From: a virus
Lineage: Duplodnaviria; Caudoviricetes
Virus record (IMG/VR): IMGVR_UViG_3300020069_000003
Coordinates: 1-64,000 of that record
Strand: one strand, 5' to 3'
DNA length: 64,000 nt
Shown one piece after another: positions 2,055 to 35,364 of the stretch. The position numbers and the translations under genes are program-made. The notes below the pieces were generated by a model. The model was not told the DNA's origin. It made no database searches and saw only the letters and a list, made by a program, of their open reading frames with translations. The first letter of the stretch is position 1, and each line of letters opens with the position of its first letter.

Positions 2055-2459
2055 ATGAGCTGGGAGAAGTGGGACCGAGACCACCGCCCGACGTCGGCCG
2101 ACAAGGCCGCGCGGTCGACCGGTGCGGATTGGGTCAAGCGTGAGTCGGATAATCTGACTCAACTGCACCCCGGACTCAAGCTCAACGTCAGTCGTAGTAG
2201 CGCCGGGCACGTGGTAGTGCACTCGATAGTGGTACCCAAGGACAACAGATCCGAAGGAGTAGGCAGCCACATCATGCAGCATCTTACCCGGCACGCCGAC
2301 GCCCACGGCGACACCATGGCGCTGACTCCGTCCAAGGATTTCGGCGGCACTGTATCCCGTCTGAAGATCTTCTACGGTCGACACGGGTTCAAGCCGAACA
2401 CCGGCCGAAGTCGAGATCTGTCGATCTCCGAGACGATGGTGCGGGAGCCGAAGAAGTGA
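2055..2459 (+). CDS. GNAT-like acetyltransferase with WxKWD leader
   Basis: IVVPKDNRSEGVGSHIM matches the acetyl-CoA motif A (R-x-x-G-x-G); RLKIFYGRHGF matches motif B. Confidence 0.75.
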   Translation: MSWEKWDRDHRPTSADKAARSTGADWVKRESDNLTQLHPGLKLNVSRSSAGHVVVHSIVVPKDNRSEGVGSHIMQHLTRHADAHGDTMALTPSKDFGGTVSRLKIFYGRHGFKPNTGRSRDLSISETMVREPKK

Positions 2460-7849: not shown

Positions 7850-7864
7850 TTGTCTAGTTGGCAA
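7850..7864. promoter_or_regulatory. degenerate operator TTGTC-TAGTT-GGCAA in divergent promoter region
   Basis: Flanked by inverted copies of the GGGGGTGGTGT motif (7815+, 7867-). Confidence 0.5.
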
Positions 7865-7962
7865 GCACACCACCCCCGTCTGCGTCCGCACGGGCGTGGC
7901 CGACAGCGTGCCTCGAATGGTTCAATAGACCCAACTTGCTTGAACAGACTCGGAGGTCGTTG

Positions 7963-9594
7963 GTGGCTAACCCCGTTGAGGCGACGCTGGCCGCCAGCCA
8001 AGACCTGATGGAGGGCCTGCAGACGCTGGCAAACTCTCTGCCGGACTACCACCGGGCAGAGATGTACTACGAGGCCACCAACCCGGAGTTCTTCGCCAGC
8101 ATCCGCCTGCGACGTGCTCTGGAGCGCACCGGCATCACTTTCCGGTTCAACCTGGCCAAGACCCCGGTTGACGTCATGGCCGACCGCCTGGAGATCAACG
8201 CCATCCAGGTGGCGGACGACGAACAGGCCGACCAGATCCTGCAGCGGATCTGGGAGCGGAATCTGATGGAACTGGAGTCCACCAACATCCACCGCCGGGC
8301 GGGGGAGTTCGGGGACGCATACCTGATCGTCTGGCCGTCGCCCGACCAGGACGAGGACGACCGATCGGGCACGGCGCTGGAGGAGGACCAGGCCGAGGAC
8401 GACCTGGACTACCAGCCGGTGGACATGTTCTACAACTCGCCGAAGACCACGCGGGTCGTGTACGACATTGAGAACCCGACCCGCAAGAAATACGCCATCA
8501 AGAAGTGGACGCTTCCGGCCCAGCTGGGGATGAAGTCGAAGCCCCCCACCCGGGTCAACCTGTACTACCCGGACCGGATTGAGAAGTACATCACAGTAGC
8601 CAACTCCAAAGGCAACCAGCGTCGCGACTGGATCCAGTTCCGGGACGACGACGACGAGGAGTGGCCCTGCCCCAACCCGTTCGGCGAAATACCGGTGTTC
8701 CACTTCCGCACCGGCACCCCCTATGGCGACCCGGAGCACCGGGCGGCGTACGGCCCGCAGGATGCCATCAACAAGCTGATCATCACGCACGCCGCGACGA
8801 TCGACTACTACGGCTTCCCCCAGCGGTACCTGCTCGCCAATCCGGACAAGGGATCGGACGAGCTGGCCGACTTCGACACCTCCGACGACATCAACCGATT
8901 TGAGGACACCGGCCACGACTCCACGCTGCGCGCGGGACCGGGCGAGGTGTGGTGGCTGAACGGCGTGCGGCAGGCGGGGCAGTTCGAGCCGCCGGACCCC
9001 CAGGTGTTCCTGTCGCCGCTGGAGGTCTACGTCCGGATGATGGCGCAGGTCACCAGCACCCCGCTGCACTATTTCGACCCGCAGACCTACTCCCGCCTGC
9101 CCCCGTCGGGCGAGTCGATCCGCGCGGCCGAGGTCCCGCTGCTGAAGAAGGTGCGCCGCCGACAGGTCACCTACGGGCGCGGCTGGACCGAGTCGATGCA
9201 GTTCGCGCTGAAGATCGCTACCTGGGAGGACGACTCCGGCACCGGGCGTATCTTCAACCCGAACGTGGTGGTGCGCTGGACGCCCAGCGCCACCATCGAC
9301 GACGCGGCAGGCTGGCAGATGATGAGGGTCAAGAAAGACCTGGGCGTGCCCGGCCGCCAGATCCTCCAGGAGGCGGGGTACGAGGAGGAGCAGGTCGAGG
9401 AGTGGCTGCCGTACGGCGGGGACGACCTTGACCAGCGGGTGGATCTGCTGGTCAAGGTGGCTGGTGCCGCACAGCAGCTGGCCACCGCCGCCAGTCTCGG
9501 AGCGATGGATTCCAAGCAGGTCAACTCGATCATCATGAACCTGCTGAACCTGCCTGACGAGAAATCTACCGAATACGACGAAGGGACAGCCTGA
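7963..9594 (+). CDS. portal protein (SPP1 gp6-like)
   Basis: GGAGGT SD plus GTG; position after terL; GEIPVFHFR and QDAINKLI segments typical of actinophage portals. Confidence 0.9.
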   Translation: MANPVEATLAASQDLMEGLQTLANSLPDYHRAEMYYEATNPEFFASIRLRRALERTGITFRFNLAKTPVDVMADRLEINAIQVADDEQADQILQRIWERNLMELESTNIHRRAGEFGDAYLIVWPSPDQDEDDRSGTALEEDQAEDDLDYQPVDMFYNSPKTTRVVYDIENPTRKKYAIKKWTLPAQLGMKSKPPTRVNLYYPDRIEKYITVANSKGNQRRDWIQFRDDDDEEWPCPNPFGEIPVFHFRTGTPYGDPEHRAAYGPQDAINKLIITHAATIDYYGFPQRYLLANPDKGSDELADFDTSDDINRFEDTGHDSTLRAGPGEVWWLNGVRQAGQFEPPDPQVFLSPLEVYVRMMAQVTSTPLHYFDPQTYSRLPPSGESIRAAEVPLLKKVRRRQVTYGRGWTESMQFALKIATWEDDSGTGRIFNPNVVVRWTPSATIDDAAGWQMMRVKKDLGVPGRQILQEAGYEEEQVEEWLPYGGDDLDQRVDLLVKVAGAAQQLATAASLGAMDSKQVNSIIMNLLNLPDEKSTEYDEGTA

Positions 9595-9878
9595 TGGCCT
9601 ATTCGAGCGGATACGCCAAGGGAGCGGCGAACGACGCCGATCTGCTGCACGGTTGCGGGCAGACGGGCCAGGTCACCCACGCCAGCGCCAGGGGCACCGA
9701 GACCACCTCCTCCACCAAGAAAGGCATGGACCCGGGCATGTCGGCCGCGCTAGGTCGGCCCCGGGCCAAGTCCGACATGCCGGGATCGACGCCGGAGGAC
9801 GTCAACGTGGCCCCCGGCCAGCGCACCACCAAGTCCCTGGGGTACGGCAAGACCCCGCCCCCGATGCCGCGCCGCTAG
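9594..9878 (+). CDS. small low-complexity protein
   Basis: TGATG coupling to portal. Confidence 0.6.
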   Translation: MAYSSGYAKGAANDADLLHGCGQTGQVTHASARGTETTSSTKKGMDPGMSAALGRPRAKSDMPGSTPEDVNVAPGQRTTKSLGYGKTPPPMPRR

Positions 9879-9899
9879 ACCGAGAGGACAGACCGCCTG

Positions 9900-10142
9900 A
9901 TGTCCAAGAAAAAGACACCCGCCGAGTACCGCCGTGCCGCCAAGCAGCTGGCTGCGAAGGCCCCGCAGAAGGACGACCGCGTGGTCGACCAGTCGGGGTC
10001 TAACGGCAGCGTGATCGGTACGGCGGCGGGGGTGGTGAAGGTGCAGCACGACGACGGCAAGATAGCCTTCCACGCGCTGGGAGCGGTACGCAAGGTCAAC
10101 CCGGCTCCGGCGGCGCCGGAGGTCAAGAAGAAGGTCAAGTAG
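9900..10142 (+). CDS. Lys-rich small protein with SH3/KOW-like core
   Basis: DRVVDQSGSNGSVIG...VKVQHDDG core between basic termini. Confidence 0.65.
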   Translation: MSKKKTPAEYRRAAKQLAAKAPQKDDRVVDQSGSNGSVIGTAAGVVKVQHDDGKIAFHALGAVRKVNPAPAAPEVKKKVK

Positions 10143-10153
10143 GGGTGGTGTGA

Positions 10154-11524
10154 GTGAACTGGGCCAAGTGGGATGCCGAGCACGGGCATGGCGGTACCGG
10201 CGTGTCCTCGGCCGACAAGATCGCGGCCCAGATCCGAGGTGCGCTCGGAGCGGGCAAGACCGACGAGCCCAAGGTCAGGACAGTCCGAGGTCGCAGCGGG
10301 TCCACGATCTCCCGGGCCGAGTCGGCACGGTCGGCCGTCTCCCACGTCCAGAAGAGCGACATGAAGCGCCCTGCCCCGGTCAAGGGTGAGAAGGACCAGG
10401 CGGATTCGTTCCGGACCAAGATACGGATGGCCGAGTACAACCGCAAGAAAGCCGCCGCCGTGTCGCAGGACCCGGTCGACAAGCACACCCCGCGCACCGA
10501 GGCCCGGTCCAACCCTGCATCTGACTCGTCCAAGAAAATCGCTGACCAGATACGGGGGGTCCACGGGGCGCAGCACGGGAAGGACGTCCCCGCACCAGCT
10601 AAGAAGACGGCGCGCGCGCCCAAGACCGTCAAAACCGAGGCAGAGCCGACCTTGTACAAGGACGACGAGTACGGACGTGCGTCCAAGGCAGCGGACGAGG
10701 CGACCCGGAAGGCTGAGGCCGACCCGACCGACGAGAACCACAAGGCGGCGATGGCCGCCCACAGCTACGCGGCGGGCAAGCTGGGGTCCGGCAAGGTCAG
10801 CAGCAAGAACCCGGGCGCGGTTACGTACCACAACGCCATGCGTACGTACCACTACTACGCCAACCACCCGAACCGTCCGAAGGCGGGGGTGGTGGAGGAG
10901 CACGGGGACCGGGTGGACCCGAACGCGGCTGCCGGGCAGTTTCTGGACACGAGAAGCCGGGCAGCGTCTGAGGCTGCGTACAACTCCATACCGGAGGTGC
11001 GCAAGACGGGGGTGGGTCCGGAGCACCTGGACTCTGTCAGGGCGTACACCAAAGGGTCGGACGCCACCATCAACAGCCACCTGCGCAGCGGGCCCAGTTC
11101 CGACCCCAGCGTGGCAGCGCAGGCCCAGGGGCATATCGACCGGCTGGACGAGGCTTTCGCCAAGCAGGCTCCGCTGTCCAGCGACCTGACCTCGTACCGG
11201 GGCGTGTCCCACGTGGAGCAGCTGTTCGGCAAGGTGGGGGAGAGGGTGGGTAGCGAGTTTGTCGACCACGGATTCTCCAGTACCACCACCAACCCGGAGA
11301 TCGCACGGTCGTTCGGGGCACAGCATCAGGGCGGGGCGTTGCTGCGGGTCACCACCAAGGCCGGTACGCGAGTGTTGAATCCGGCCGGTGCGGGCGGGTT
11401 CGGACGGTCCGAGCGCGAGATCATGATGCCTCGGGGGTCTTCCTACCGCGTCAAGGCAGACCGTATGGTCAGGCTGCACGACGGCACCCTACAACGTCAG
11501 ATCGACCTGGAGCACGGAGGATGA
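10154..11524 (+). CDS. ADP-ribosyltransferase 1 (VIP2-like, R-S-ExE)
   Basis: YTKGSDATINSHLR, SYRG, GFSSTT, SEREIMMPR; basic N-terminal region with WAKWDAEH leader. Confidence 0.9.
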   Translation: MNWAKWDAEHGHGGTGVSSADKIAAQIRGALGAGKTDEPKVRTVRGRSGSTISRAESARSAVSHVQKSDMKRPAPVKGEKDQADSFRTKIRMAEYNRKKAAAVSQDPVDKHTPRTEARSNPASDSSKKIADQIRGVHGAQHGKDVPAPAKKTARAPKTVKTEAEPTLYKDDEYGRASKAADEATRKAEADPTDENHKAAMAAHSYAAGKLGSGKVSSKNPGAVTYHNAMRTYHYYANHPNRPKAGVVEEHGDRVDPNAAAGQFLDTRSRAASEAAYNSIPEVRKTGVGPEHLDSVRAYTKGSDATINSHLRSGPSSDPSVAAQAQGHIDRLDEAFAKQAPLSSDLTSYRGVSHVEQLFGKVGERVGSEFVDHGFSSTTTNPEIARSFGAQHQGGALLRVTTKAGTRVLNPAGAGGFGRSEREIMMPRGSSYRVKADRMVRLHDGTLQRQIDLEHGG

Positions 11525-11664
11525 CGGACGTGGCGGATTCGAAGAAGTCCAAGCGGTTCACCTGGACACCGGGCGACCTGGTGTGGAAAGATCGTCCTAC
11601 CAGTGCCCAGAAGCTGGCTGGTCAGGCGAGCGTGCCTAAGCGGAAGCAGGAGGGGAGCAAGTGA
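11521..11664 (+). CDS. micro-protein A (47 aa, TWxPGDxxW motif)
   Basis: MTDVADSKKSKRFTWTPGDLVWKDRPTSAQKLAG...; ATGA and GTGA overlaps with ART1 and ART2; not in the ORF track. Confidence 0.75.
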   Translation: MTDVADSKKSKRFTWTPGDLVWKDRPTSAQKLAGQASVPKRKQEGSK

Positions 11665-13754
11665 GCTGGGCCAAGTGGGACGCCGAACACCGCAGCGCCG
11701 GTGTGCGCGTGGCCGACGTAGGTGGCGGTCGGTCCAAGGTGACCTCGGGCGGCAAGCACCTGGGGAACATCGAGAAGCAGGGTAACCTGTACAAGGCCGT
11801 AACCAAGGTCAACGGGAACCTGCAGTCCCACACCGCCCTTACCCACCAGGGTGCGTTGAATCACATCCGGGCGGTGCACGGACTGCCTGCGGTGTCGTCC
11901 AAGAAAGCGGCTGCTCCTCAGGTCCCGCACGTCCCCGGCATGGGCCTGGCGTCTCCGAAGAAGACGGCGGCCAAAAAGACGGCAGCCGCCGCCCCCAAGA
12001 CCGCTGCCGCAGCCCGCGACGCCATGCACGCTCCCGCACCGGCCAAGAAAACCGCCGCGCCCTTCCACGCCTGGAACGCTGAACACGGATCGGGCGGGGG
12101 TGGTGTATCGTCCGCCGACCAGATCGCCGCTTCGATCCGGGGTGCGCTCGGTCCGGGCAAGATGGACGCGCCGAAGATGACGTCCAAGACCGGCAAGTCC
12201 GGGTCGACCATCTCCCGGGCGGCCGAGTCGCGCTCGACCGCCGCGCACGTCCTGAAGAAGGACATGAAGCGTCCGGCACCGGTGAAGGGCGAGAAGGACC
12301 CGGCCGACGCCTTCCGTACCAAGATCCGCATGGCCGCCTACAACGAGAAGAAGAAGCAGGCGGTGGCGGCCGACCCGGTGAACGCGCACACCCCCCACAC
12401 CGAAGAGGCCCTGAACCCGCACGACATGTCTCCGACGGACAAGGCAGAGGCCTATATGAAGGCTCGCAAGGCTGCCAACGCCGCAGGGTCGAAGGCGATG
12501 CAGGAGAATACCGTAGCGGCCCACCAGGCGGCCTACGACGCCCACAACAAAGCGATGGGCCTGGCCACCAGCTACGGGATCAAAAAAGGCCACAGGGGCA
12601 ACATGGAGCTGCACGCCAAGCAGATCCAGAAGCTCGGCGGTACGGTCAACCCGGGCAAGGGAGCGCCCGCCGCCAAGAAAACGGCGGCGTCGTCCTCGGC
12701 CGACAAGATCGCGGCGGCGATCAAGGGCGCCCACGCCGAGCAGCACGGCAAGGTGGTACCCAGCGCCCCGGCGGTGAAGAAGGCAGCTGCGCCCAAGGCC
12801 AAGGCTCCGAAGGTGACTCACACCGTCCCGGCCCTGGTGGAGAACAAGCACGCGGAGGGCAGCACGGAGGACCTGGCGGACAAGGCGGACGCTGCTACCC
12901 ACGCCGCCAACGCCAGCCCGTCGTACGTCAATCACCAGAAGGCGTATCAGGCTCACGCGGCGGTGCTGTCGAAGCTCGGCAGCACGTCGCACTCCGGGTC
13001 CGACCAGTACAAGGCCCGCGACTACCACACCATGATGCAGGGATACCACCGGTTCGCGGCCGACCACCCGAGCAAGGTGATCCCGGCGGGAGTGAAGGAG
13101 GAGCACACGGACAAGCTGGCCGACCGGATACCCCAGGCCAGCGCACACCAGATGTTTACCTCGTTCACCGAGAGCAACTCCCGGCGGCACTCCCAGCAGC
13201 TGTACACGGCGCTTCCGAGGGCGTCCGAGGCCAAGCTGACGGCGGCCGAGAAGTCGTCGATCGGGGCGTACTCCAGCAGCGGATACGGGACGATCAACGC
13301 GCACCACCGCAACCCCGGAAAGCTGTCCGCAACCGACAAGGCGTACGCCGAGAAGCACACCGCCAACCTGGACTCGGCGTTCAGGAAGCAACCCGCTCTG
13401 GAGCACGACCTGGTGACCTACCGGGGGACCCGGGAAGCGGACAAGCTGTTCGGCAAGGTGGGGGAGAAGGTCGGGGGCGAGTTCGTCGACCACGGATACA
13501 CCAGTACCGCTACTCACGCGGCGGTCGGCGGCGGATTCGGCGGCGGCATGGCCGGTAGCAACACCAACACGCTGGTCCGCATCCTGCATCCCCAGGGGTC
13601 CAAGGTGATGAAGCTGTCCGACACCAGCAGCTTCGGCGATTCCGAGCGGGAGATCCTGACACCGCGCGGCACCCGGTTCCACATCGCCGCCGACCGGATC
13701 GTCACGCTACAGAACGGCCGGACTCAGCGGCAGGTGGACCTGATCCGCAAGTAG
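11661..13754 (+). CDS. ADP-ribosyltransferase 2 (VIP2-like, R-S-ExE)
   Basis: YSSSGYGTINAHHR, TYRG, GYTSTA, SEREILTPR; K/A-rich N-terminus, paralog of ART1. Confidence 0.9.
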   Translation: MSWAKWDAEHRSAGVRVADVGGGRSKVTSGGKHLGNIEKQGNLYKAVTKVNGNLQSHTALTHQGALNHIRAVHGLPAVSSKKAAAPQVPHVPGMGLASPKKTAAKKTAAAAPKTAAAARDAMHAPAPAKKTAAPFHAWNAEHGSGGGGVSSADQIAASIRGALGPGKMDAPKMTSKTGKSGSTISRAAESRSTAAHVLKKDMKRPAPVKGEKDPADAFRTKIRMAAYNEKKKQAVAADPVNAHTPHTEEALNPHDMSPTDKAEAYMKARKAANAAGSKAMQENTVAAHQAAYDAHNKAMGLATSYGIKKGHRGNMELHAKQIQKLGGTVNPGKGAPAAKKTAASSSADKIAAAIKGAHAEQHGKVVPSAPAVKKAAAPKAKAPKVTHTVPALVENKHAEGSTEDLADKADAATHAANASPSYVNHQKAYQAHAAVLSKLGSTSHSGSDQYKARDYHTMMQGYHRFAADHPSKVIPAGVKEEHTDKLADRIPQASAHQMFTSFTESNSRRHSQQLYTALPRASEAKLTAAEKSSIGAYSSSGYGTINAHHRNPGKLSATDKAYAEKHTANLDSAFRKQPALEHDLVTYRGTREADKLFGKVGEKVGGEFVDHGYTSTATHAAVGGGFGGGMAGSNTNTLVRILHPQGSKVMKLSDTSSFGDSEREILTPRGTRFHIAADRIVTLQNGRTQRQVDLIRK

Positions 13755-13762
13755 TTTATAGC

Positions 13763-13792
13763 GTGACACAAAGTCAATGGGTATGATACAAT
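13763..13792 (+). promoter_or_regulatory. promoter GTGACA-18-TACAAT with overlapping operator GTGAC-ACAAA-GTCAA
   Basis: AT-rich intergenic region before AAGGAGGT SD. Confidence 0.6.
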
Positions 13793-13815
13793 TTTCTTAG
13801 ATAAGGAGGTGTGTA

Positions 13816-13986
13816 GTGAAGACACCCAAGACGCCGACTGACGAACGAACCGCCGACAAGATGACTTGGAAGCCCGGGGATGTCCAGTGGGTCAAGGACC
13901 CACCGGCCCGTCCGAAGAGAACCGCTGCCCAGCGGCTGGCCGACCGGATCCGGCGCAGTGACGGAACCGACCAACAGCGCCGGTAA
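13816..13986 (+). CDS. micro-protein B (56 aa, TWxPGDxxW motif)
   Basis: MKTPKTPTDERTADKMTWKPGDVQWVKDPPARPKRTAAQRLADR...; strong AAGGAGGT SD; homologous to micro-protein A. Confidence 0.75.
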   Translation: MKTPKTPTDERTADKMTWKPGDVQWVKDPPARPKRTAAQRLADRIRRSDGTDQQRR

Positions 13987-15082
13987 CACCCCGGCCGAGC
14001 AACAGGCTGTGTCAACGGTGACGGTGGAGAACGCCGCCGCCGTCGCAGCCATGTTGGTGCTGGAGAAACATGCGGTCGAGGCCGTGTCCGGACCCCTGCG
14101 CAGGCAGCTGTCCGACACTCTCCGGCTTCTGGCCAGCAGGTATGTGCTGATGTTCGGGGGACTGGACCGTTCCACCACCCCCGCCCAGGCACAGCAGCTC
14201 GTCAGCGTATTGACTGTCGAGCTGGAGCAGATTCGACAGTACGACCCGGTACCGGCGCTGACCGCCGCCACCGACGATGCCCGACGGGCGGGGGTGGTGT
14301 ACGCCAACCGGCACCTGCCGGACCCGGTGTCGGAGGCAGAGGTACCGGTGGACAAGGCCGTACAGGACGCGGTCGAGGCTGCCCCGGCCGCGATCTCCGA
14401 CGCTGTGGACGCGGCGCAGCAGTTTGCGCAGCAGCTGCCCATCACCGGCTGGGACGACGCCGTGCGGGCGGTGGGCAAGGCCAGCCAGGCGGCCTCGAAC
14501 CTGGAGGGGCGAACCTCCTGGGTGGTCAACCGGGCCAACTCGTCCTCGATCTCCTACATCGCCGCCCAGCGCGGCGCCCTGCTGCTGTGGGTGGCGGAGC
14601 CGGACGCCTGTGTAGTCTGTCTGGCGCTGTCTGGACACACGGTCAACCCGGCCGAGGGCGAAGGATTTGACGAGACGGCCACTTTCGGAAAGCCGGGGTC
14701 GGCACCGGATATCTACCCGCCCGGTATGCCGCTGATGCGTCCGCCGCGTCACCGATATTGCCGCTGCCACCCGGAGATCTGGTACGGCCCGGCGGTACCG
14801 GCGGGCGGCCCCGAGGAGACCTCGCTGTACAACCGGCCGGGGGTCGGGGCCAACGTGGACCTGCCCGCCGCTCTGCGGCGCGAGGCCAAGCGGTCGATCC
14901 TGTACGGATGGTCGCTACCCAGCGAATCCAATATTTCACGACTCGATGCTGCGGCCCGTCTGCTGGCCAAGGGCGCAGGTCTTCCGAAGTCGGTTGAGGC
15001 CAAGTCCCGCGCGGCAGTCAACAAGGGCAAGTTCGACAACCGGGTACATCCGTCGAAGAGGCGCACTGCACACCGTCCGTAG
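13958..15082 (+). CDS. MuF-like minor capsid protein (start uncertain)
   Basis: WVAEPDACVVCLALSG and PPRHRYCRCH motifs of the SPP1 gp7/MuF family. Confidence 0.85.
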   Translation: MTEPTNSAGNTPAEQQAVSTVTVENAAAVAAMLVLEKHAVEAVSGPLRRQLSDTLRLLASRYVLMFGGLDRSTTPAQAQQLVSVLTVELEQIRQYDPVPALTAATDDARRAGVVYANRHLPDPVSEAEVPVDKAVQDAVEAAPAAISDAVDAAQQFAQQLPITGWDDAVRAVGKASQAASNLEGRTSWVVNRANSSSISYIAAQRGALLLWVAEPDACVVCLALSGHTVNPAEGEGFDETATFGKPGSAPDIYPPGMPLMRPPRHRYCRCHPEIWYGPAVPAGGPEETSLYNRPGVGANVDLPAALRREAKRSILYGWSLPSESNISRLDAAARLLAKGAGLPKSVEAKSRAAVNKGKFDNRVHPSKRRTAHRP

Positions 15083-15146
15083 CCGATGTTAAACTGGCTA
15101 CAGTTTGCAGATGCAGACAGCTGTCGCCCCCGTTGGGAGTTCGCAC

Positions 15147-15998
15147 ATGAGCCGTATCCGCCTGCTTCCCCCGCCCGGTCAACCGATCGGCCACCTCAGG
15201 GACGGACGTCCCGTCTACCCCGTGATCGGAGCAGCCTCCGACGAGTTCGAGATCGAGGCCGATGAGCCCGACGACGCGGAGGACGAGCCCGACGACGACG
15301 AGGAGGAGGACGAGGAGGAGAGTGGCCAGGACGGCAAGTGGACCCCTCCCTCGAAGACCGAGTGGCTGAAGGTCCAGAGCGCCCTGTCGAAGGCCAACGC
15401 GTCGGCCAAGGAGCGCCGTCTGGCGCTGGCCGAGAAGGAGAAGGCCATCGCGGAGCTGCAGAAGCGGGAGGCCGAGCGGGAGGCCGAGGCCGAGCGCAAG
15501 GCCCTACTGGACGGCCAGCAGCCGACACCGGCGGGCAAGGGTAAGAAGGGGGGCAGGGGTGGTGTAACGCCGCCTGCCCCGATGCTCCCGGACAGCGTGC
15601 TGACTAAGGCCCAGGTGCGGCAGCTGACCGCGCAGGCGGCGAAGGAGGCCGAGGAGCGTACAGCCGCCAAGTACCAGGACAAGGTGGTGAAGGCGGCGGC
15701 TCGTGCGGCTCTGAAGGACGCCGGTGCAGCGGGCAACGTCTCCCGGCTGGTGGCGCTGCTGAATCTGGAGGAGGTCCAGATCGACGACGACGGCGAGGTT
15801 GCCGAGGGTCTCGACGACCAGATCGAACAGCTGAAGCAGGAGCTGCCGCAGCTGTTCGCTCCGCCGGAGCCGCCCAAGCCGGTGCGCAAGCGGGCCCCGG
15901 CTCCGAAGGTCACGCCAGCCGGTCGCCAGGACATCGAGGAGCGTCCGCAGTCCTCAGCCGAGCGTATCGCCGCACTGGCACTCGGCAACCGCGTATAG
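15147..15998 (+). CDS. capsid scaffolding protein
   Basis: Acidic tract plus coiled coil, directly upstream of the capsid gene. Confidence 0.8.
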   Translation: MSRIRLLPPPGQPIGHLRDGRPVYPVIGAASDEFEIEADEPDDAEDEPDDDEEEDEEESGQDGKWTPPSKTEWLKVQSALSKANASAKERRLALAEKEKAIAELQKREAEREAEAERKALLDGQQPTPAGKGKKGGRGGVTPPAPMLPDSVLTKAQVRQLTAQAAKEAEERTAAKYQDKVVKAAARAALKDAGAAGNVSRLVALLNLEEVQIDDDGEVAEGLDDQIEQLKQELPQLFAPPEPPKPVRKRAPAPKVTPAGRQDIEERPQSSAERIAALALGNRV

Positions 15999-16001
15999 CT
16001 C

Positions 16002-16029
16002 TTGACGTCCTGACGTGGTAACATAGTCT
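16002..16029 (+). promoter_or_regulatory. putative capsid promoter TTGACG...TAGTCT
   Basis: Sigma70-like hexamers; lacks the right half of the operator palindrome. Confidence 0.5.
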
Positions 16030-16112
16030 CAGCTCGCGGGTGCGGGTGGGTACGGACCTGGATTGGTCTAAATCAACCAGCAACGACTCACCCAAACCCA
16101 GGAGACAAGCAG

Positions 16113-17159
16113 ATGTTCTCTGCTAACCGTCTGCCGGGCGGTCCTGGTATCGCCCCCAAGACGATCATCGGCTACATCGGCGACAGGCCGGTCTACGCCG
16201 TCGCGGGCGGTGCCCGAGACACGATGGAAGCGTGGATCCCCGAGGAGTTCGACTCCCAGGTGATCATGCGCGTGAACCAGATCTCCGGCGTCGAGGCGCT
16301 GGGATCTCCGGTCCCCATGAACTCCGAGACCCGGTCGGTTCCCCGGTCCGCCGGTGTCGGCGTGGCGCTGGTCGCCAAGGGCGGCACCTACTCCGAGGAC
16401 CAGTCGGTCAACGACTCGGTGATCCTGTCGGCGCAGAAGTTCGGCCAGGCGGTCCGGATCGCGGAAGAGGACATCGACGACGCGATCGCCGACGTCATCG
16501 CGACCAAGCAGAAGGACTGGGCTACCTCCTACGGCAAGATGTTCGACAACGCCTGCCTGGCGACGTCGGCCGCCGTCGGTACAGGCGTTCCGTTCGCGTC
16601 GGTGTACTACAGCCTGACCCAGACGAACTCGAACACCGGATACACCGCCAACGCCAACCTGACCCAGACCGGCAGCGCGGGCACCACCTACGCCACCCTC
16701 TCCAACTCGCTGGGCAACGTCGAGCGCGGCAACTACTTCGACATCTCGGAGATGGTCTGCCTCGCCCACCCGGCGTACCGCAACCTGCTGCGGAACATCA
16801 AGGACACGAACAACCGCCCGATCTTCCAGGAGTCGACGGCGGGCTTCCCCGGCGGCGGCATGGCCGCGTCTCCGGACACGATCTTCGGTATCCCGATCCA
16901 CTGGTCTCTCGGCGCGATGACCTCGGCGACGGCCACCCCGACCCCGACCGGCAACCCGCTGCTGATCTGGGCCAACCGCAACTACATGATCATCGGCCGC
17001 CGGTCGGGTCCGGAGTCGGTGTTCATCGACGGCCGGAACGGCCTGTCGGCGCTGACCGACGAGTCGATCCTGAAGATGTGCGCCCGGCGCGCGTTCGCGG
17101 TCGGCCACGAGGCGGCGTTCGCGGTCCACGAGGACAACTCGGGCAACATCAACCTGTGA
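16113..17159 (+). CDS. major capsid protein (HK97 fold)
   Basis: Position, 348 aa, ISEEDIDD-like segment (IAEEDIDD), KDTNNRPIF and IFGIPI motifs. Confidence 0.9.
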   Translation: MFSANRLPGGPGIAPKTIIGYIGDRPVYAVAGGARDTMEAWIPEEFDSQVIMRVNQISGVEALGSPVPMNSETRSVPRSAGVGVALVAKGGTYSEDQSVNDSVILSAQKFGQAVRIAEEDIDDAIADVIATKQKDWATSYGKMFDNACLATSAAVGTGVPFASVYYSLTQTNSNTGYTANANLTQTGSAGTTYATLSNSLGNVERGNYFDISEMVCLAHPAYRNLLRNIKDTNNRPIFQESTAGFPGGGMAASPDTIFGIPIHWSLGAMTSATATPTPTGNPLLIWANRNYMIIGRRSGPESVFIDGRNGLSALTDESILKMCARRAFAVGHEAAFAVHEDNSGNINL

Positions 17160-34336: not shown

Positions 34337-35364
34337 TTGCGGCCTCCGAACAGCAGCGGCTCCCAGTAGGTGGCGGCGAGCCTCTCGACGGTGAACTTCT
34401 GGGCGACCTCGCGCGCGGCCCGGCCCATGGACTCGCGCAGTTCGGGGTTGTTGATCAGCTCCCGGACCGGGGTTTCCCAGTCGCCGCCGGGCGGAATCAG
34501 GAAGCCGGTCTCACCTTCAACCACGAACTGGCGGTAGGGGGTGGTGTCGGAGGCGACGATCGGGATGCCGAGAAACGCGGCCTCCAGCGCCTTGGTGGCT
34601 ACCTTCGCCTCGTTGTACTCGGTCCGGCGGTACGGCGCCAGCCAGATGTCGAAGTCGATGGTATCCAGGTACTTGTCGGTACCCGGCACCCAGCCGGTGA
34701 TCCGGGTGCCGGGCTGGGCGATACCGAGCTTCCGGGCGTGGTCGTACGGTACGCCGACGGTGTGCGCCCGGCCTCCCCAGTCGCCGACCGATGCCAGCAC
34801 CCGTCTGACGTCTCCGGACAGCTCCCACTGGGTGAAGGCGGACCCGGCCCAGCCCACTACCGGCCGGTGTATCGCCGCACCGACCCCGAGCTTATCCAGG
34901 CGTTCCCACGGCGCCTCGTACGCCAGGTACCGCTCAGGCAGGCCGTTCGGCACCATCACCACGTTGTTGCAGTAGATGTCGAAGATCTCGGCCAACCGCC
35001 AAGAGGCGCAGGTGGTGAAGGTGGCCGACGCGGCGTTGGCCAGCAGCCGCGCCTGCACCTGGGACTTGCTGTACTCGGTCGCCGCCGGTCCGAACTCCGG
35101 GTGCTGGTACATGTGGAAGTAGTCGTCGTCCGCGTCGAACACGGTGGTCTTCGAGTGCTCGAAGTTCCACCGGGCCCAGGAGGTGGTGGGTCCGGGCAGC
35201 GACAGCCGCTGGACCATGACCGCGTCTGCGTCCAGGTACTCGCCCTGGAACTCGATCCCCTGTCCGATGTCGTGGCCCCGGGCGCGCAGGGCCTCGGCGA
35301 CGATGACGGTGCGGTACCAGCCGCACCCGCCCTCGTCGGCCGACCACAGCCACGCCTTACCCAC
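34333..35364 (-). CDS. GT-B (GT4-like) glycosyltransferase
   Basis: GCGWYR, VFDADDDYF, MVPNGLP, KALEAAFLGIPIVASD...Y...G motifs. Confidence 0.85.
   Translation of the reverse strand: MGKAWLWSADEGGCGWYRTVIVAEALRARGHDIGQGIEFQGEYLDADAVMVQRLSLPGPTTSWARWNFEHSKTTVFDADDDYFHMYQHPEFGPAATEYSKSQVQARLLANAASATFTTCASWRLAEIFDIYCNNVVMVPNGLPERYLAYEAPWERLDKLGVGAAIHRPVVGWAGSAFTQWELSGDVRRVLASVGDWGGRAHTVGVPYDHARKLGIAQPGTRITGWVPGTDKYLDTIDFDIWLAPYRRTEYNEAKVATKALEAAFLGIPIVASDTTPYRQFVVEGETGFLIPPGGDWETPVRELINNPELRESMGRAAREVAQKFTVERLAATYWEPLLFGGRK

Follow-up and report, generated by a model that had tools for sequence, protein, structure and literature searches.

The head-gene block of an uncultured soil phage contains two ADP-ribosyltransferase (ART) genes, each followed by a tiny gene, and the products of these tiny genes form a family not described before, whose members lie nearly always directly behind ARTs. 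Structure prediction places the micro-protein on the ART domain, over its catalytic residues. The micro-protein may be a cognate inhibitor that occludes the ART active site, possibly serving as a packaging chaperone as well, a reading to which we assign a probability of roughly 0.55. All four ORFs (ART1, mic1, ART2, and mic2) are present where a first-pass annotation of the window, i.e., the 64-kb stretch of DNA analyzed here, had located them (Table 1).

Table 1. Coordinates of the ART/micro-ORF units and of the genes that flank them in the window.
Feature	Position	Strand	Content or evidence	Status
Portal protein	7858..9594	+	PF05133 E 1.5e-12; PHROG 104 E 8e-66	context
Conserved 80-aa ORF, portal–ART1 interval	9900..10142	+	orthologues in relatives	context
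ART1, 456 aa	10154..11524	+	WAKWD-type N-terminal leader; C-terminal R-S-ExE ADP-ribosyltransferase domain	
ART1 leader/N-domain block, copied within ART2	10169..10516	+	69% identity to ART2 residues 138–253	
mic1, 47 aa	11521..11664	+	TWxPGDxxW at 11563–11586; SAQKLA at 11599–11619	
ART2, 697 aa	11661..13754	+	leader, duplicated block (12072–12419), helical region, C-terminal R-S-ExE ART domain	
Sigma-70-like promoter	13763..13792	+	GTGACA, 18 nt, TACAAT, extended TG	
mic2, 56 aa	13816..13986	+	TWxPGDxxW at 13867–13890; SAQRLA helix motif at 13921–13941	
MuF-like minor head protein	13958..15082	+	position between portal and scaffold; orthologue starts	context

The two ART/micro-ORF pairs had been placed between portal and MuF, and this is where they lie. 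The MuF-like gene is a separate gene downstream of them, located after the portal and before the scaffold as expected of the MuF/SPP1 gp7 type. Translation probably begins with the GTG at 13958, a position equivalent to the starts of its orthologues in three relatives (L004, L007, and L010), and the gene overlaps the 3′ end of mic2 by 29 nt. The window copy has no Pfam match at E ≤ 0.1; the L010 orthologue matches PF06152 (E 0.002) and PF04233 (E 0.067), both weakly and under the cut-off. The 80-aa ORF ahead of ART1 has no match in Pfam or PHROG, and its orthologues share 86–99% identity in L006 and L007 and 37% in the ART-less L013. The complete, terminally repeated phage genome of 77,480 bp contains no match to the integrase or serine recombinase families PF00589 and PF07508, and the phage appears to be non-temperate, although lysogeny by some other route is possible. 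Database searches found no cultured relative, and a search of 185,579 species genomes did not find the ART clade. Given a complete genome with no integrase and a clade not found in species genomes, classical lysogen immunity would not apply here.

Both enzymes are of the R-S-ExE type, as had been proposed. They match PF03496 (ADPrib_exo_Tox; C3/VIP2/ExoS/Alt-type) above its gathering cut-off of 23.4 bits, ART1 at residues 290–435 (E 7.7e-16, 58.4 bits) and ART2 at residues 524–693 (E 8.8e-17, 61.5 bits), and they also match PHROG 802, “Alt-like RNA polymerase ADP-ribosyltransferase”, with E values of 1.8e-11 and about 3.1e-14, respectively. The alignment shows that the YRG catalytic Arg, the STT/STA motif, and the ERE (ExE) motif are kept in both. 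R119, S146, and E193/E195, numbered as in the ART2 domain, do not vary among 8/8 aligned ARTs, an alignment that took in only ARTs having a micro-ORF; when further ARTs are included, QxE occurs in L034, and L008a lacks the first Glu of ExE. By sequence, the closest solved relative of ART2 is the ART domain of ExoS (E 0.0011). Neither ART protein has a MuF-type match in Pfam or PHROG.

The pattern TWxPGDxxW...AQ(K/R)LA, reported earlier for the two micro-ORFs, is present in both, and mic1 and mic2 are homologous members of one family (BLASTP E 1e-6). A profile search of 1.84 billion representative proteins yielded 19 clusters of 41–59 aa at E < 1e-3 (best E 3e-18), one of whose representatives, P0006, has exactly the sequence of mic1. 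No known domain was found in the micro-proteins in Pfam, PHROGs, NCBIfam, PDB, or Atlas. They are short, basic, and disordered for the most part, and mic2 modeled alone with AF2 forms only a helix at residues 37–50. Their design is two-part, with a TWxPGDxxW N-half followed by a conserved SAQKLA-type C-terminal helix. Micro-ORFs were called as genes independently in many metagenomes. For mic2, orthologues are present in L004, L007, L015, and L008, and its dN/dS values against the two closest of them (L004 and L007) are 0.26 and 0.38, which fits a translated gene under purifying selection.

The expression signals agree in most points with the first-pass annotation. The translational coupling of mic1 is borne out by its start, which overlaps the ART1 stop (ATGA, 11521–11524), and by its stop, which overlaps the ART2 start (GTGA, 11661–11664). 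For mic2, which had been credited with its own promoter/operator and a strong SD, a sigma-70-like promoter site and the SD are present, but the operator is not supported. The promoter site shows 10/12 sigma-70 matches and occupies the region’s only AT-rich gap, and the SD (AAGGAGG) lies 6 nt ahead of the GTG start; the −35, the −10, and the SD are kept in position in four diverged relatives (L004, L007, L015, and L008). The sole repeat near mic2 is a 9-nt inverted pair (13701–13709/13759–13767), and it lends an operator no support, its left arm lying inside coding sequence and the pair being kept in the closest relatives only.

The proposed co-occurrence of TWxPGDxxW ORFs with ARTs is also found elsewhere. 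In a linkage search that did not use ART as a query, upstream DNA was readable for seven micro-proteins (P0002, P0012, P0014, P0018, P0020, P0021, and P0025), and in all seven cases the gene immediately upstream encodes an ART, the two genes often overlapping by 1 or 4 nt. Six of the seven upstream genes match PF03496, and the remaining one, cut so that the C-terminus of an ART is left, matches ART2 at 76%. The linkage extends to an otherwise different, unrelated phage, in which P0025 follows a 978-aa Portal_Mu–ART fusion. Usually, the micro-ORF also abuts or overlaps the MuF-like gene. It is absent from L013, where the portal, the 80-aa ORF, and MuF have no gene between them, and from L019, whose cargo is non-ART only. 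In L010 and L041, a micro-ORF in which the two tryptophans are lost, but the C-terminal helix motif is kept, is found behind an HExxH-peptidase cargo, the HExxH domains of the two being homologous (51% identity, E 5e-81). L041 has both micro types, each behind its own effector. From these sequences, the N-half of the micro-protein appears to track the effector type. One relative’s ART, L008a, is the only one in the set to lack its own micro-ORF. Since it is also the only ART missing the first Glu of ExE, with an insertion at that place, this exception is consistent with inhibition as the function of the micro-protein.

The complex prediction suggested as a check likewise models binding. For the ART2 domain with mic2, the median ipSAE was 0.77, compared with 0.01 for the best of three controls, and in calibration this mark was reached by 58/80 solved complexes and 2/110 mismatched pairs. 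The model was built from self-made shallow alignments; its runs share at least 66% of contacts, with a partner pLDDT of 61 or more. As a PDB search gave no solved relative of the micro-protein, the model is unlikely to have been copied from a known complex. The predicted interface sets mic2 residues 15–30 against N77, R81, R119–G120, F139–H142, S146–A148, E193, and E195, and these ART residues are invariant catalytic positions. The TWxPGDxxW segment is modeled on the catalytic Arg, the STS motif, and the ExE glutamates, and the SAQKLA-type C-terminal helix falls outside the interface.

According to this model, the micro-protein would be a small, largely disordered, cognate partner of the preceding ART. 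Its TWxPGDxxW segment would fold on the ART domain, adding a strand beside the strand that enters the STS motif, and its tryptophans would enter the NAD+ cleft, so that the catalytic Arg, the STS serine, and the ExE glutamates would be covered. We infer inhibition, packaging, and release from this: with its active-site residues covered by the plug, the ART would be held inactive during virion assembly in the producing cell. The ARTs would be Alt-like cargo, made with the head genes and loaded into the capsid via their N-terminal leader domains, and would reach the next host, where the plug may be missing or lost. The C-terminal amphipathic helix would not be part of the plug and may have a role in common with the cargo leaders, e.g., head docking or release timing.

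Several known systems resemble this arrangement in part. Among MuF polymorphic toxins, which are almost exclusive to temperate phages, 14% are ARTs, and small ORFs lie behind 89% of the toxin genes (Jamet et al. 2017, PMC5576092). As in those toxins, the effector gene lies in the portal–MuF part of the head genes, immediately ahead of a very small ORF without a known domain, and its product presumably enters the host together with the DNA. Yet the ARTs here are separate genes upstream of the MuF-like gene and have their own repeated N-terminal leader, no integrase is seen in the 77-kb genome, and a single conserved two-part family of 41–59 aa takes the place of varied ORFs under 150 aa. Their earlier description as MuF-linked toxins in that sense does not fit. 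In a Bacteroides stercoris prophage (Bxa-Bsi-BAH), the small non-enzymatic protein Bsi, encoded adjacently, binds and blocks the ART Bxa (Alexei et al. 2024, PMC11699363) and is modeled in the ART active site, like the micro-protein. No sequence relation between Bsi and the micro-protein family was found. Neutralization by Bsi is experimental, whereas that by the micro-protein is predicted, and no ADP-ribosylhydrolase partner is seen here among the window genes from portal to capsid.

Head packaging of ARTs is established for T4 and has been proposed to be widespread (PMC9503650). T4 Alt resembles the ARTs of this phage in that PHROG 802 covers more than the catalytic core of both, the genes are late/head-associated, and an N-terminal region presumably guides packaging; however, this region has no sequence relation to that of Alt, and packaging of the present ARTs is presumed. 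A further likeness, in predicted active-site occlusion and adjacent genes, is to interbacterial ART pairs such as Tre1–Tri1, whose genes are adjacent and co-expressed and whose immunity protein occludes an R-S-E-type active site. Immunity proteins of this type are folded, about 100 aa or more in length, and in some cases hydrolases, and they shield sister cells from the delivered toxin, whereas here a ~50-aa peptide is predicted to fold upon binding in an apparently lytic phage. The micro-ORFs vary the known theme of a phage head toxin with a small immunity gene: the ARTs are unfused to MuF, no integrase is seen, and a similar motif occurs in cis elsewhere.

Some observations speak against inhibition. 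To our knowledge, T4 Alt works without an inhibitor partner; the distances among ARTs and among micro-proteins show no overall co-variation (Mantel r −0.02); the phage appears non-temperate; the similar motif that forms an N-terminal leader within the ARTs of other phages could mean targeting; and the conserved C-terminal helix is not accounted for. The helix would have a function if the micro-protein were a packaging chaperone or adaptor, whose N-half grips the ART domain and whose helix is an address tag attaching both proteins to MuF, portal, or scaffold for procapsid loading, inhibition being incidental. Indeed, nothing in the family is better conserved across both micro types than the helix, and it aligns with the second motif in the leaders of ART, peptidase, and leader-only cargo proteins (hhalign E 0.0036; HMM E 1.5e-5 to 0.005 with an 11-sequence set). 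Within the window, the helix/leader pattern is limited to the four ART and micro-ORF genes, and the usual contact of the micro-ORF with a MuF-like gene also fits such a role, as does the micro-protein behind the portal–ART fusion, which has two N-motifs and no helix. Yet the ARTs themselves already own one to three leader copies, the likeness between helix and leader is short, weak, and partly post hoc, and the predicted contacts fall exactly on catalytic residues instead of a neutral surface; we regard this explanation as possible, if rather unlikely. A chaperone role and an inhibitor role are compatible, as in secretion chaperones.

The motifs in cis raise another alternative. ARTs of low-GC phages (L062, L064, L070, L078, and L085) carry a similar motif at their extreme N-terminus in one to three copies, and it also occurs at the N-terminus of an ART–topoisomerase IB protein (L069) and of larger proteins right behind ARTs (L051, L067, and L068). 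The micro family aligns with these leaders (hhalign E 8.6e-5, probability 60%), as would be the case if the micro-ORFs were free-standing peptides of a general capsid-targeting or maturation leader, i.e., packaged proteins or processing decoys that lie near ARTs only through cargo clustering and do not bind them. However, these loci were gathered with an ART query, and nearness to ARTs is thus built in. The phage’s own WAKWD-type leader, also found on GNAT and peptidase cargo, has a sequence different from the micro-protein motif, the cargo of L019 bears leaders without a micro-ORF, and a loss of the tryptophans precisely where the effector is non-ART would not be expected. Moreover, when a cis-type ART is modeled with AF2, the motif stands out as a confident strand flanked by disordered linkers (pLDDT about 75 versus below 50), as docking on the domain would give. 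A general leader is quite improbable. That the micro-ORFs are conserved but unrelated to ARTs, either encoding a small structural or regulatory head protein held by synteny or not being translated, we judge very improbable. Such an origin would suit short, basic, mostly disordered products with no known domain, and transcription of mic2 from its own promoter along with the head genes. It is opposed by purifying selection, by the strong SD or start–stop coupling, by the independent gene calls, by strict ART adjacency across unrelated phage backbones, and by the lack of micro-ORFs in relatives that share the head module but have no ART.

The micro-protein and the leaders of head-packaged ARTs might also be two forms of one detachable pro-peptide module, in which a first motif (W-x3-D-x-E/Q-H/W type) plugs the active site and the next short helix addresses the capsid, either in cis, repeated one to three times at the N-terminus, or in trans as a coupled micro-ORF. 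We consider this unlikely at present. If true, it would be a general phage means of silencing injected enzymes during assembly, with activation by maturation or ejection, and it would work in lytic phages too, where lysogen immunity is not needed.

Enzymes that phages carry in their heads serve to reprogram the next host. Control of head-loaded phage enzymes in the producing cell, where they are present in thousands of copies, is largely unstudied beyond temperate toxin–immunity pairs. If the inhibitor reading is true, this ~50-residue family would rank with the smallest protein inhibitors put forward for Alt/C3-type ARTs, and the plug segment is small enough for direct assay as a ~20-residue synthetic peptide. 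The order of ART and then micro-ORF lets annotators call genes that are usually missed. The variable plug with its constant helix, the peptidase variant, and the cis leaders point to modular loading and control of head-delivered effectors, a system that could be used, with phages that infect laboratory bacteria, to study or engineer protein delivery.

Finally, the diverged duplicated block noted between the two ARTs (about 10190–10500 versus 12090–12430) is real: ART1 residues 6–121 (nt 10169–10516) and ART2 residues 138–253 (nt 12072–12419) are 69% identical, and the C-terminal halves of the proteins share 37% identity (E 4e-54). The first-pass annotation had taken this as a duplicated ART unit, which holds insofar as the units are paralogous, but not in the sense of a recent tandem copy. 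The ART domains are only ~41% identical, and their nearest relatives differ, namely the L040 ART for ART1 (60%) and the L007 ART for ART2 (71%). Judged from these identities, the two ART/micro-ORF units are old, diverged cassettes rather than the product of a recent tandem duplication.

The two ADP-ribosyltransferase (ART) genes of the head-gene block, ART1 and ART2, are each followed by a micro-ORF, mic1 and mic2, respectively. Both ARTs pass the PF03496 threshold and match the Alt-like PHROG 802, and in the alignment both retain the catalytic Arg, the STS motif, and the ExE motif. Their nearest solved sequence relative is the ART domain of ExoS. The two ARTs are paralogous (E 4e-54), with a common N-terminal block of 116 residues (69% identity), located where the first-pass annotation had placed a diverged duplicated block. 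The framing of the two ART units as a tandem duplication needs correction. Between the portal gene and ART1, the 94-aa ORF has a 91–95-aa counterpart in the related loci L007, L015, L019, L034, L037, and L040, and the 80-aa ORF has orthologues in L006, L007, and also L013, a locus with no ART.

Features of the ART region in the window and peptidase-like cargo genes of related loci
Feature	Coordinates	Strand	Remarks
GNAT-like gene	2055–2459	+	134 aa; upstream of terminase
Portal	7858–9594	+	PF05133, PHROG 104
Small conserved ORF between portal and ART1	9594–9878	+	94 aa
Small conserved ORF between portal and ART1	9900–10142	+	80 aa
ART1	10154–11524	+	
mic1	11521–11664	+	
ART2	11661–13754	+	
AT-rich gap between ART2 and mic2			61 nt
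mic2	13816–13986	+	
MuF-like gene	conserved start at 13958	+	GTG start
Scaffold, next major capsid protein		+	after MuF-like gene
HExxH (zinc-peptidase-like) cargo	L041:2786–4534; L010:8169–9326		domain without a Pfam family

The two micro-ORFs proved to be real and homologous to each other, as had been claimed. For mic1, start–stop overlaps with both neighboring genes bear out the translational coupling. An own promoter/operator and a strong SD had been ascribed to mic2; the SD is present, as is a sigma-70-like site with 10/12 matches, whose hexamers are preserved in four diverged relatives. The operator was rejected: the only inverted repeat found, a perfect 9-nt repeat (13701–13709/13759–13767) connecting the terminal part of ART2 with the −35 region upstream of mic2, has one arm in coding sequence and is poorly conserved: it recurs in L004, in weaker form in L007, and not at all in L015 or L008. 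Orthologues of mic2 occur in every close relative having an ART, and the dN/dS values against the two closest are 0.26 and 0.38. The possibility that mic2 represents the N-terminal part of the MuF-like protein, split off by a frameshift, was rejected because family members are also located ahead of other genes: an ART in the case of mic1, a leader-only gene in L015, and a peptidase cargo gene in L040. The leader-only gene (L015:6620–6979, 119 aa) is translationally coupled to the preceding micro-ORF, and the MuF-like gene comes after it. Elsewhere in the window, a weak third match to mic2 (34769–34918, plus strand; E 0.008, 40% identity) lies inside a longer ORF and is probably due to chance.

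A profile built from seven copies of the micro-protein was run against 1.84 billion cluster representatives. Since the search made no use of the ART, linkage to ARTs can be judged fairly from the genes around its hits. It gave 23 matches at E<1e-3, 19 of which are proteins of 41–59 aa with both motifs of the family, i.e., TWxPGDxxW and the C-terminal SAQKLA-type helix. The four long matches (P0011, P0016, P0022, and P0024) are repetitive, unrelated sequences and were discarded. No named family for the micro-proteins exists in Pfam, PHROGs, NCBIfam, PDB, or Atlas (the best Atlas score with mic2, 0.77, is under the useful range), and no published description was found in the literature searched. 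Upstream DNA was readable for seven micro-proteins: P0002, P0012 (three contigs), P0014, P0018, P0020, P0021, and P0025. For all seven, an ART lies directly upstream of the micro-protein gene, often with an overlap of 1 or 4 nt, which confirms the suggested co-occurrence with ART domains; six of the upstream genes match PF03496, and the remaining one is an incomplete ART C-terminus (76% to ART2). P0025 belongs to an otherwise unrelated phage (L043) with a different terminase and gene order, where this 52-aa ORF (L043:6001–6159) follows a 978-aa Portal_Mu–ART fusion (L043:3052–5988). It carries the first motif in two copies and lacks the C-terminal helix.

Relatives that share the portal, MuF-like, and scaffold genes yet have no ART (L013 and L019) also lack the micro-ORF: in L013 the 80-aa ORF directly adjoins the MuF-like gene, and the cargo of L019 is exclusively non-ART. 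ART and micro-ORF numbers are not always equal, as L008 contains two adjacent ARTs but a single micro-ORF. Its upstream ART (L008:4481–5977) is the sole ART of the set that no micro-ORF follows and also the sole one in which the first Glu of ExE has been lost, with a 3-residue insertion there. Comparison of ART-domain and micro-protein phylogenies gave a Mantel r of −0.02 (p 0.5), the micro-proteins being too short to argue either way. When IMG/VR DNA was scanned for the motif as an exact heptapeptide, six matches were returned, one of them cut by the locus end; the other five are chance matches in large unrelated proteins without a nearby ART, and thus the 7-mer alone is not specific.

Modeled alone, mic2 is disordered except for a helix at residues 37–50. 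The complex of mic2 with the ART2 catalytic domain was predicted from own alignments of 12 and 19 rows, and the runs scored 0.77, 0.84, and 0.77, compared with 0.01 for the best of three controls; in calibration, this mark is reached by 58 of 80 solved complexes and by 2 of 110 mismatched pairs. Contact agreement between runs was at least 66%, and the partner pLDDT was at least 61. In this prediction, a check of the kind proposed earlier (AlphaFold complex), the interface consists of mic2 residues 15–30, i.e., the TWxPGDxxW segment, placed on the catalytic residues. The predicted mic2 strand pairs with domain residues 139–142 and touches N77, R81, R119–G120, S146–A148, E193, and E195; all ART-side contacts are invariant catalytic or NAD-site positions. 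The C-terminal helix lies outside the interface. These predictions support binding of mic2 to ART2 at the active site and carry no information on affinity.

Cargo proteins of L010 and L041 have the same N-terminal leader, but at their C-terminal end a homologous HExxH domain (E 5e-81) takes the place of the ART. The micro-ORF behind them aligns with the family, with both first-motif tryptophans replaced and the C-terminal helix motif retained, and L041 contains both kinds of micro-ORF, each behind its own effector. Therefore, the N-terminal half varies with the effector and the C-terminal half is constant; judged from sequence, this is how polymorphic effector cassettes that include a cognate partner are organized. 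The leader is not confined to ARTs, since the GNAT-like gene also starts with it (a WxKWD-type and a short SADK-type motif); no micro-ORF of the family lies behind this gene. GNAT homologues are found in the portal–MuF gap of L019 and fused to the peptidase cargo in L010. The C-terminal helix of the micro-protein weakly resembles the second motif of the phage's own cargo leaders, and the combined pattern occurs in only four genes within the window, a lead only, as the pattern was derived after seeing both.

A related motif is also found in cis. Among 46 IMG/VR loci collected for their related ARTs, a set ART-biased by design, the micro-protein profile matches the extreme N-termini of ARTs of low-GC phages, with one to three copies in tandem, as well as the N-termini of larger proteins right after the ART and some very small acidic ORFs. 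Profile–profile comparison of the micro-protein family with these cis leaders gave an E value of 8.6e-5 and a probability of 60%. In an AF2 model of one such ART, the N-terminal motif forms a strand in a confidence island (~75) between linkers below 50, as would be expected from docking onto the ART domain. In L069 (3518–5317; also in L071), a single 600-aa protein unites this N-terminal motif with an ART domain and a type IB topoisomerase (PF01028, E 6e-26); by its domain composition it looks like a polyvalent head-delivered protein.

The best reading, with a probability of about 0.55, is that the micro-protein may be a cognate plug silencing the ART in the producing cell, while the role of the constant helix would be a shared one, e.g., docking at the head or controlling release. 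The proposal of a cognate inhibitor is partly supported: ART linkage and predicted active-site binding hold, and the inhibitor role is putative. Its main rival, a packaging chaperone or adaptor, is possible and compatible with inhibition. A general targeting leader with no ART binding would account for the cis forms but fails to explain the loss of tryptophans behind the peptidase and the lack of a micro-ORF in L019; this view is doubtful. Selection, coupling, and strict gene order across different phage backbones make a bystander or untranslated ORF decidedly unlikely.

If the micro-proteins are inhibitors as in the plug reading, their job would be self-protection during lytic assembly, which could mean no premature modification of machinery that the phage still needs, or no NAD+ loss. 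The literature documents ARTs in head modules as well as ART fusions to MuF or portal (PMC9503650, PMC5576092), and 89% of MuF toxin genes have a small ORF behind them (PMC5576092). Bsi is a small protein that binds and neutralizes a prophage ART and has been modeled in the ART active site (PMC11699363). The present cassette is of the same kind, with five differences. The ARTs are encoded separately, ahead of the MuF-like gene, and carry a repeated leader domain (the MuF-toxin framing of the first-pass annotation needs correction); the phage looks lytic; the partner belongs to one conserved family of ~50 aa built from two parts; a Trp-less variant pairs with peptidase cargo; and the related motif is also present in cis.

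The window covers the first 64 kb of a contig that is a complete viral genome of 77,480 bp with direct terminal repeats; the G+C content of the window is ~66%. The genome has neither an integrase nor a serine recombinase, and a search of bacterial and archaeal genomes with the closer ART alignment found no prophage copies, its sole match being unrelated, in a metagenome-assembled Elusimicrobia genome; a classical immunity reading is thereby weakened. Among the cultured phages of INPHARED, no relevant match emerged from megablast with the region or from tblastn with ART2, mic2, the cluster representative P0008, and the L037 ART. Window positions 9500–16500 are present as contigs in rhizosphere metatranscriptome libraries from 2018 (runs X1–X4), in which RNA and carried-over DNA are indistinguishable, so that transcription, start site, and translation cannot be inferred from them. 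In one run, the whole 77-kb genome is a single contig, which may be carried-over DNA or mark the source sample. Given its presence in these libraries, the habitat of the phage is probably plant rhizosphere soil.
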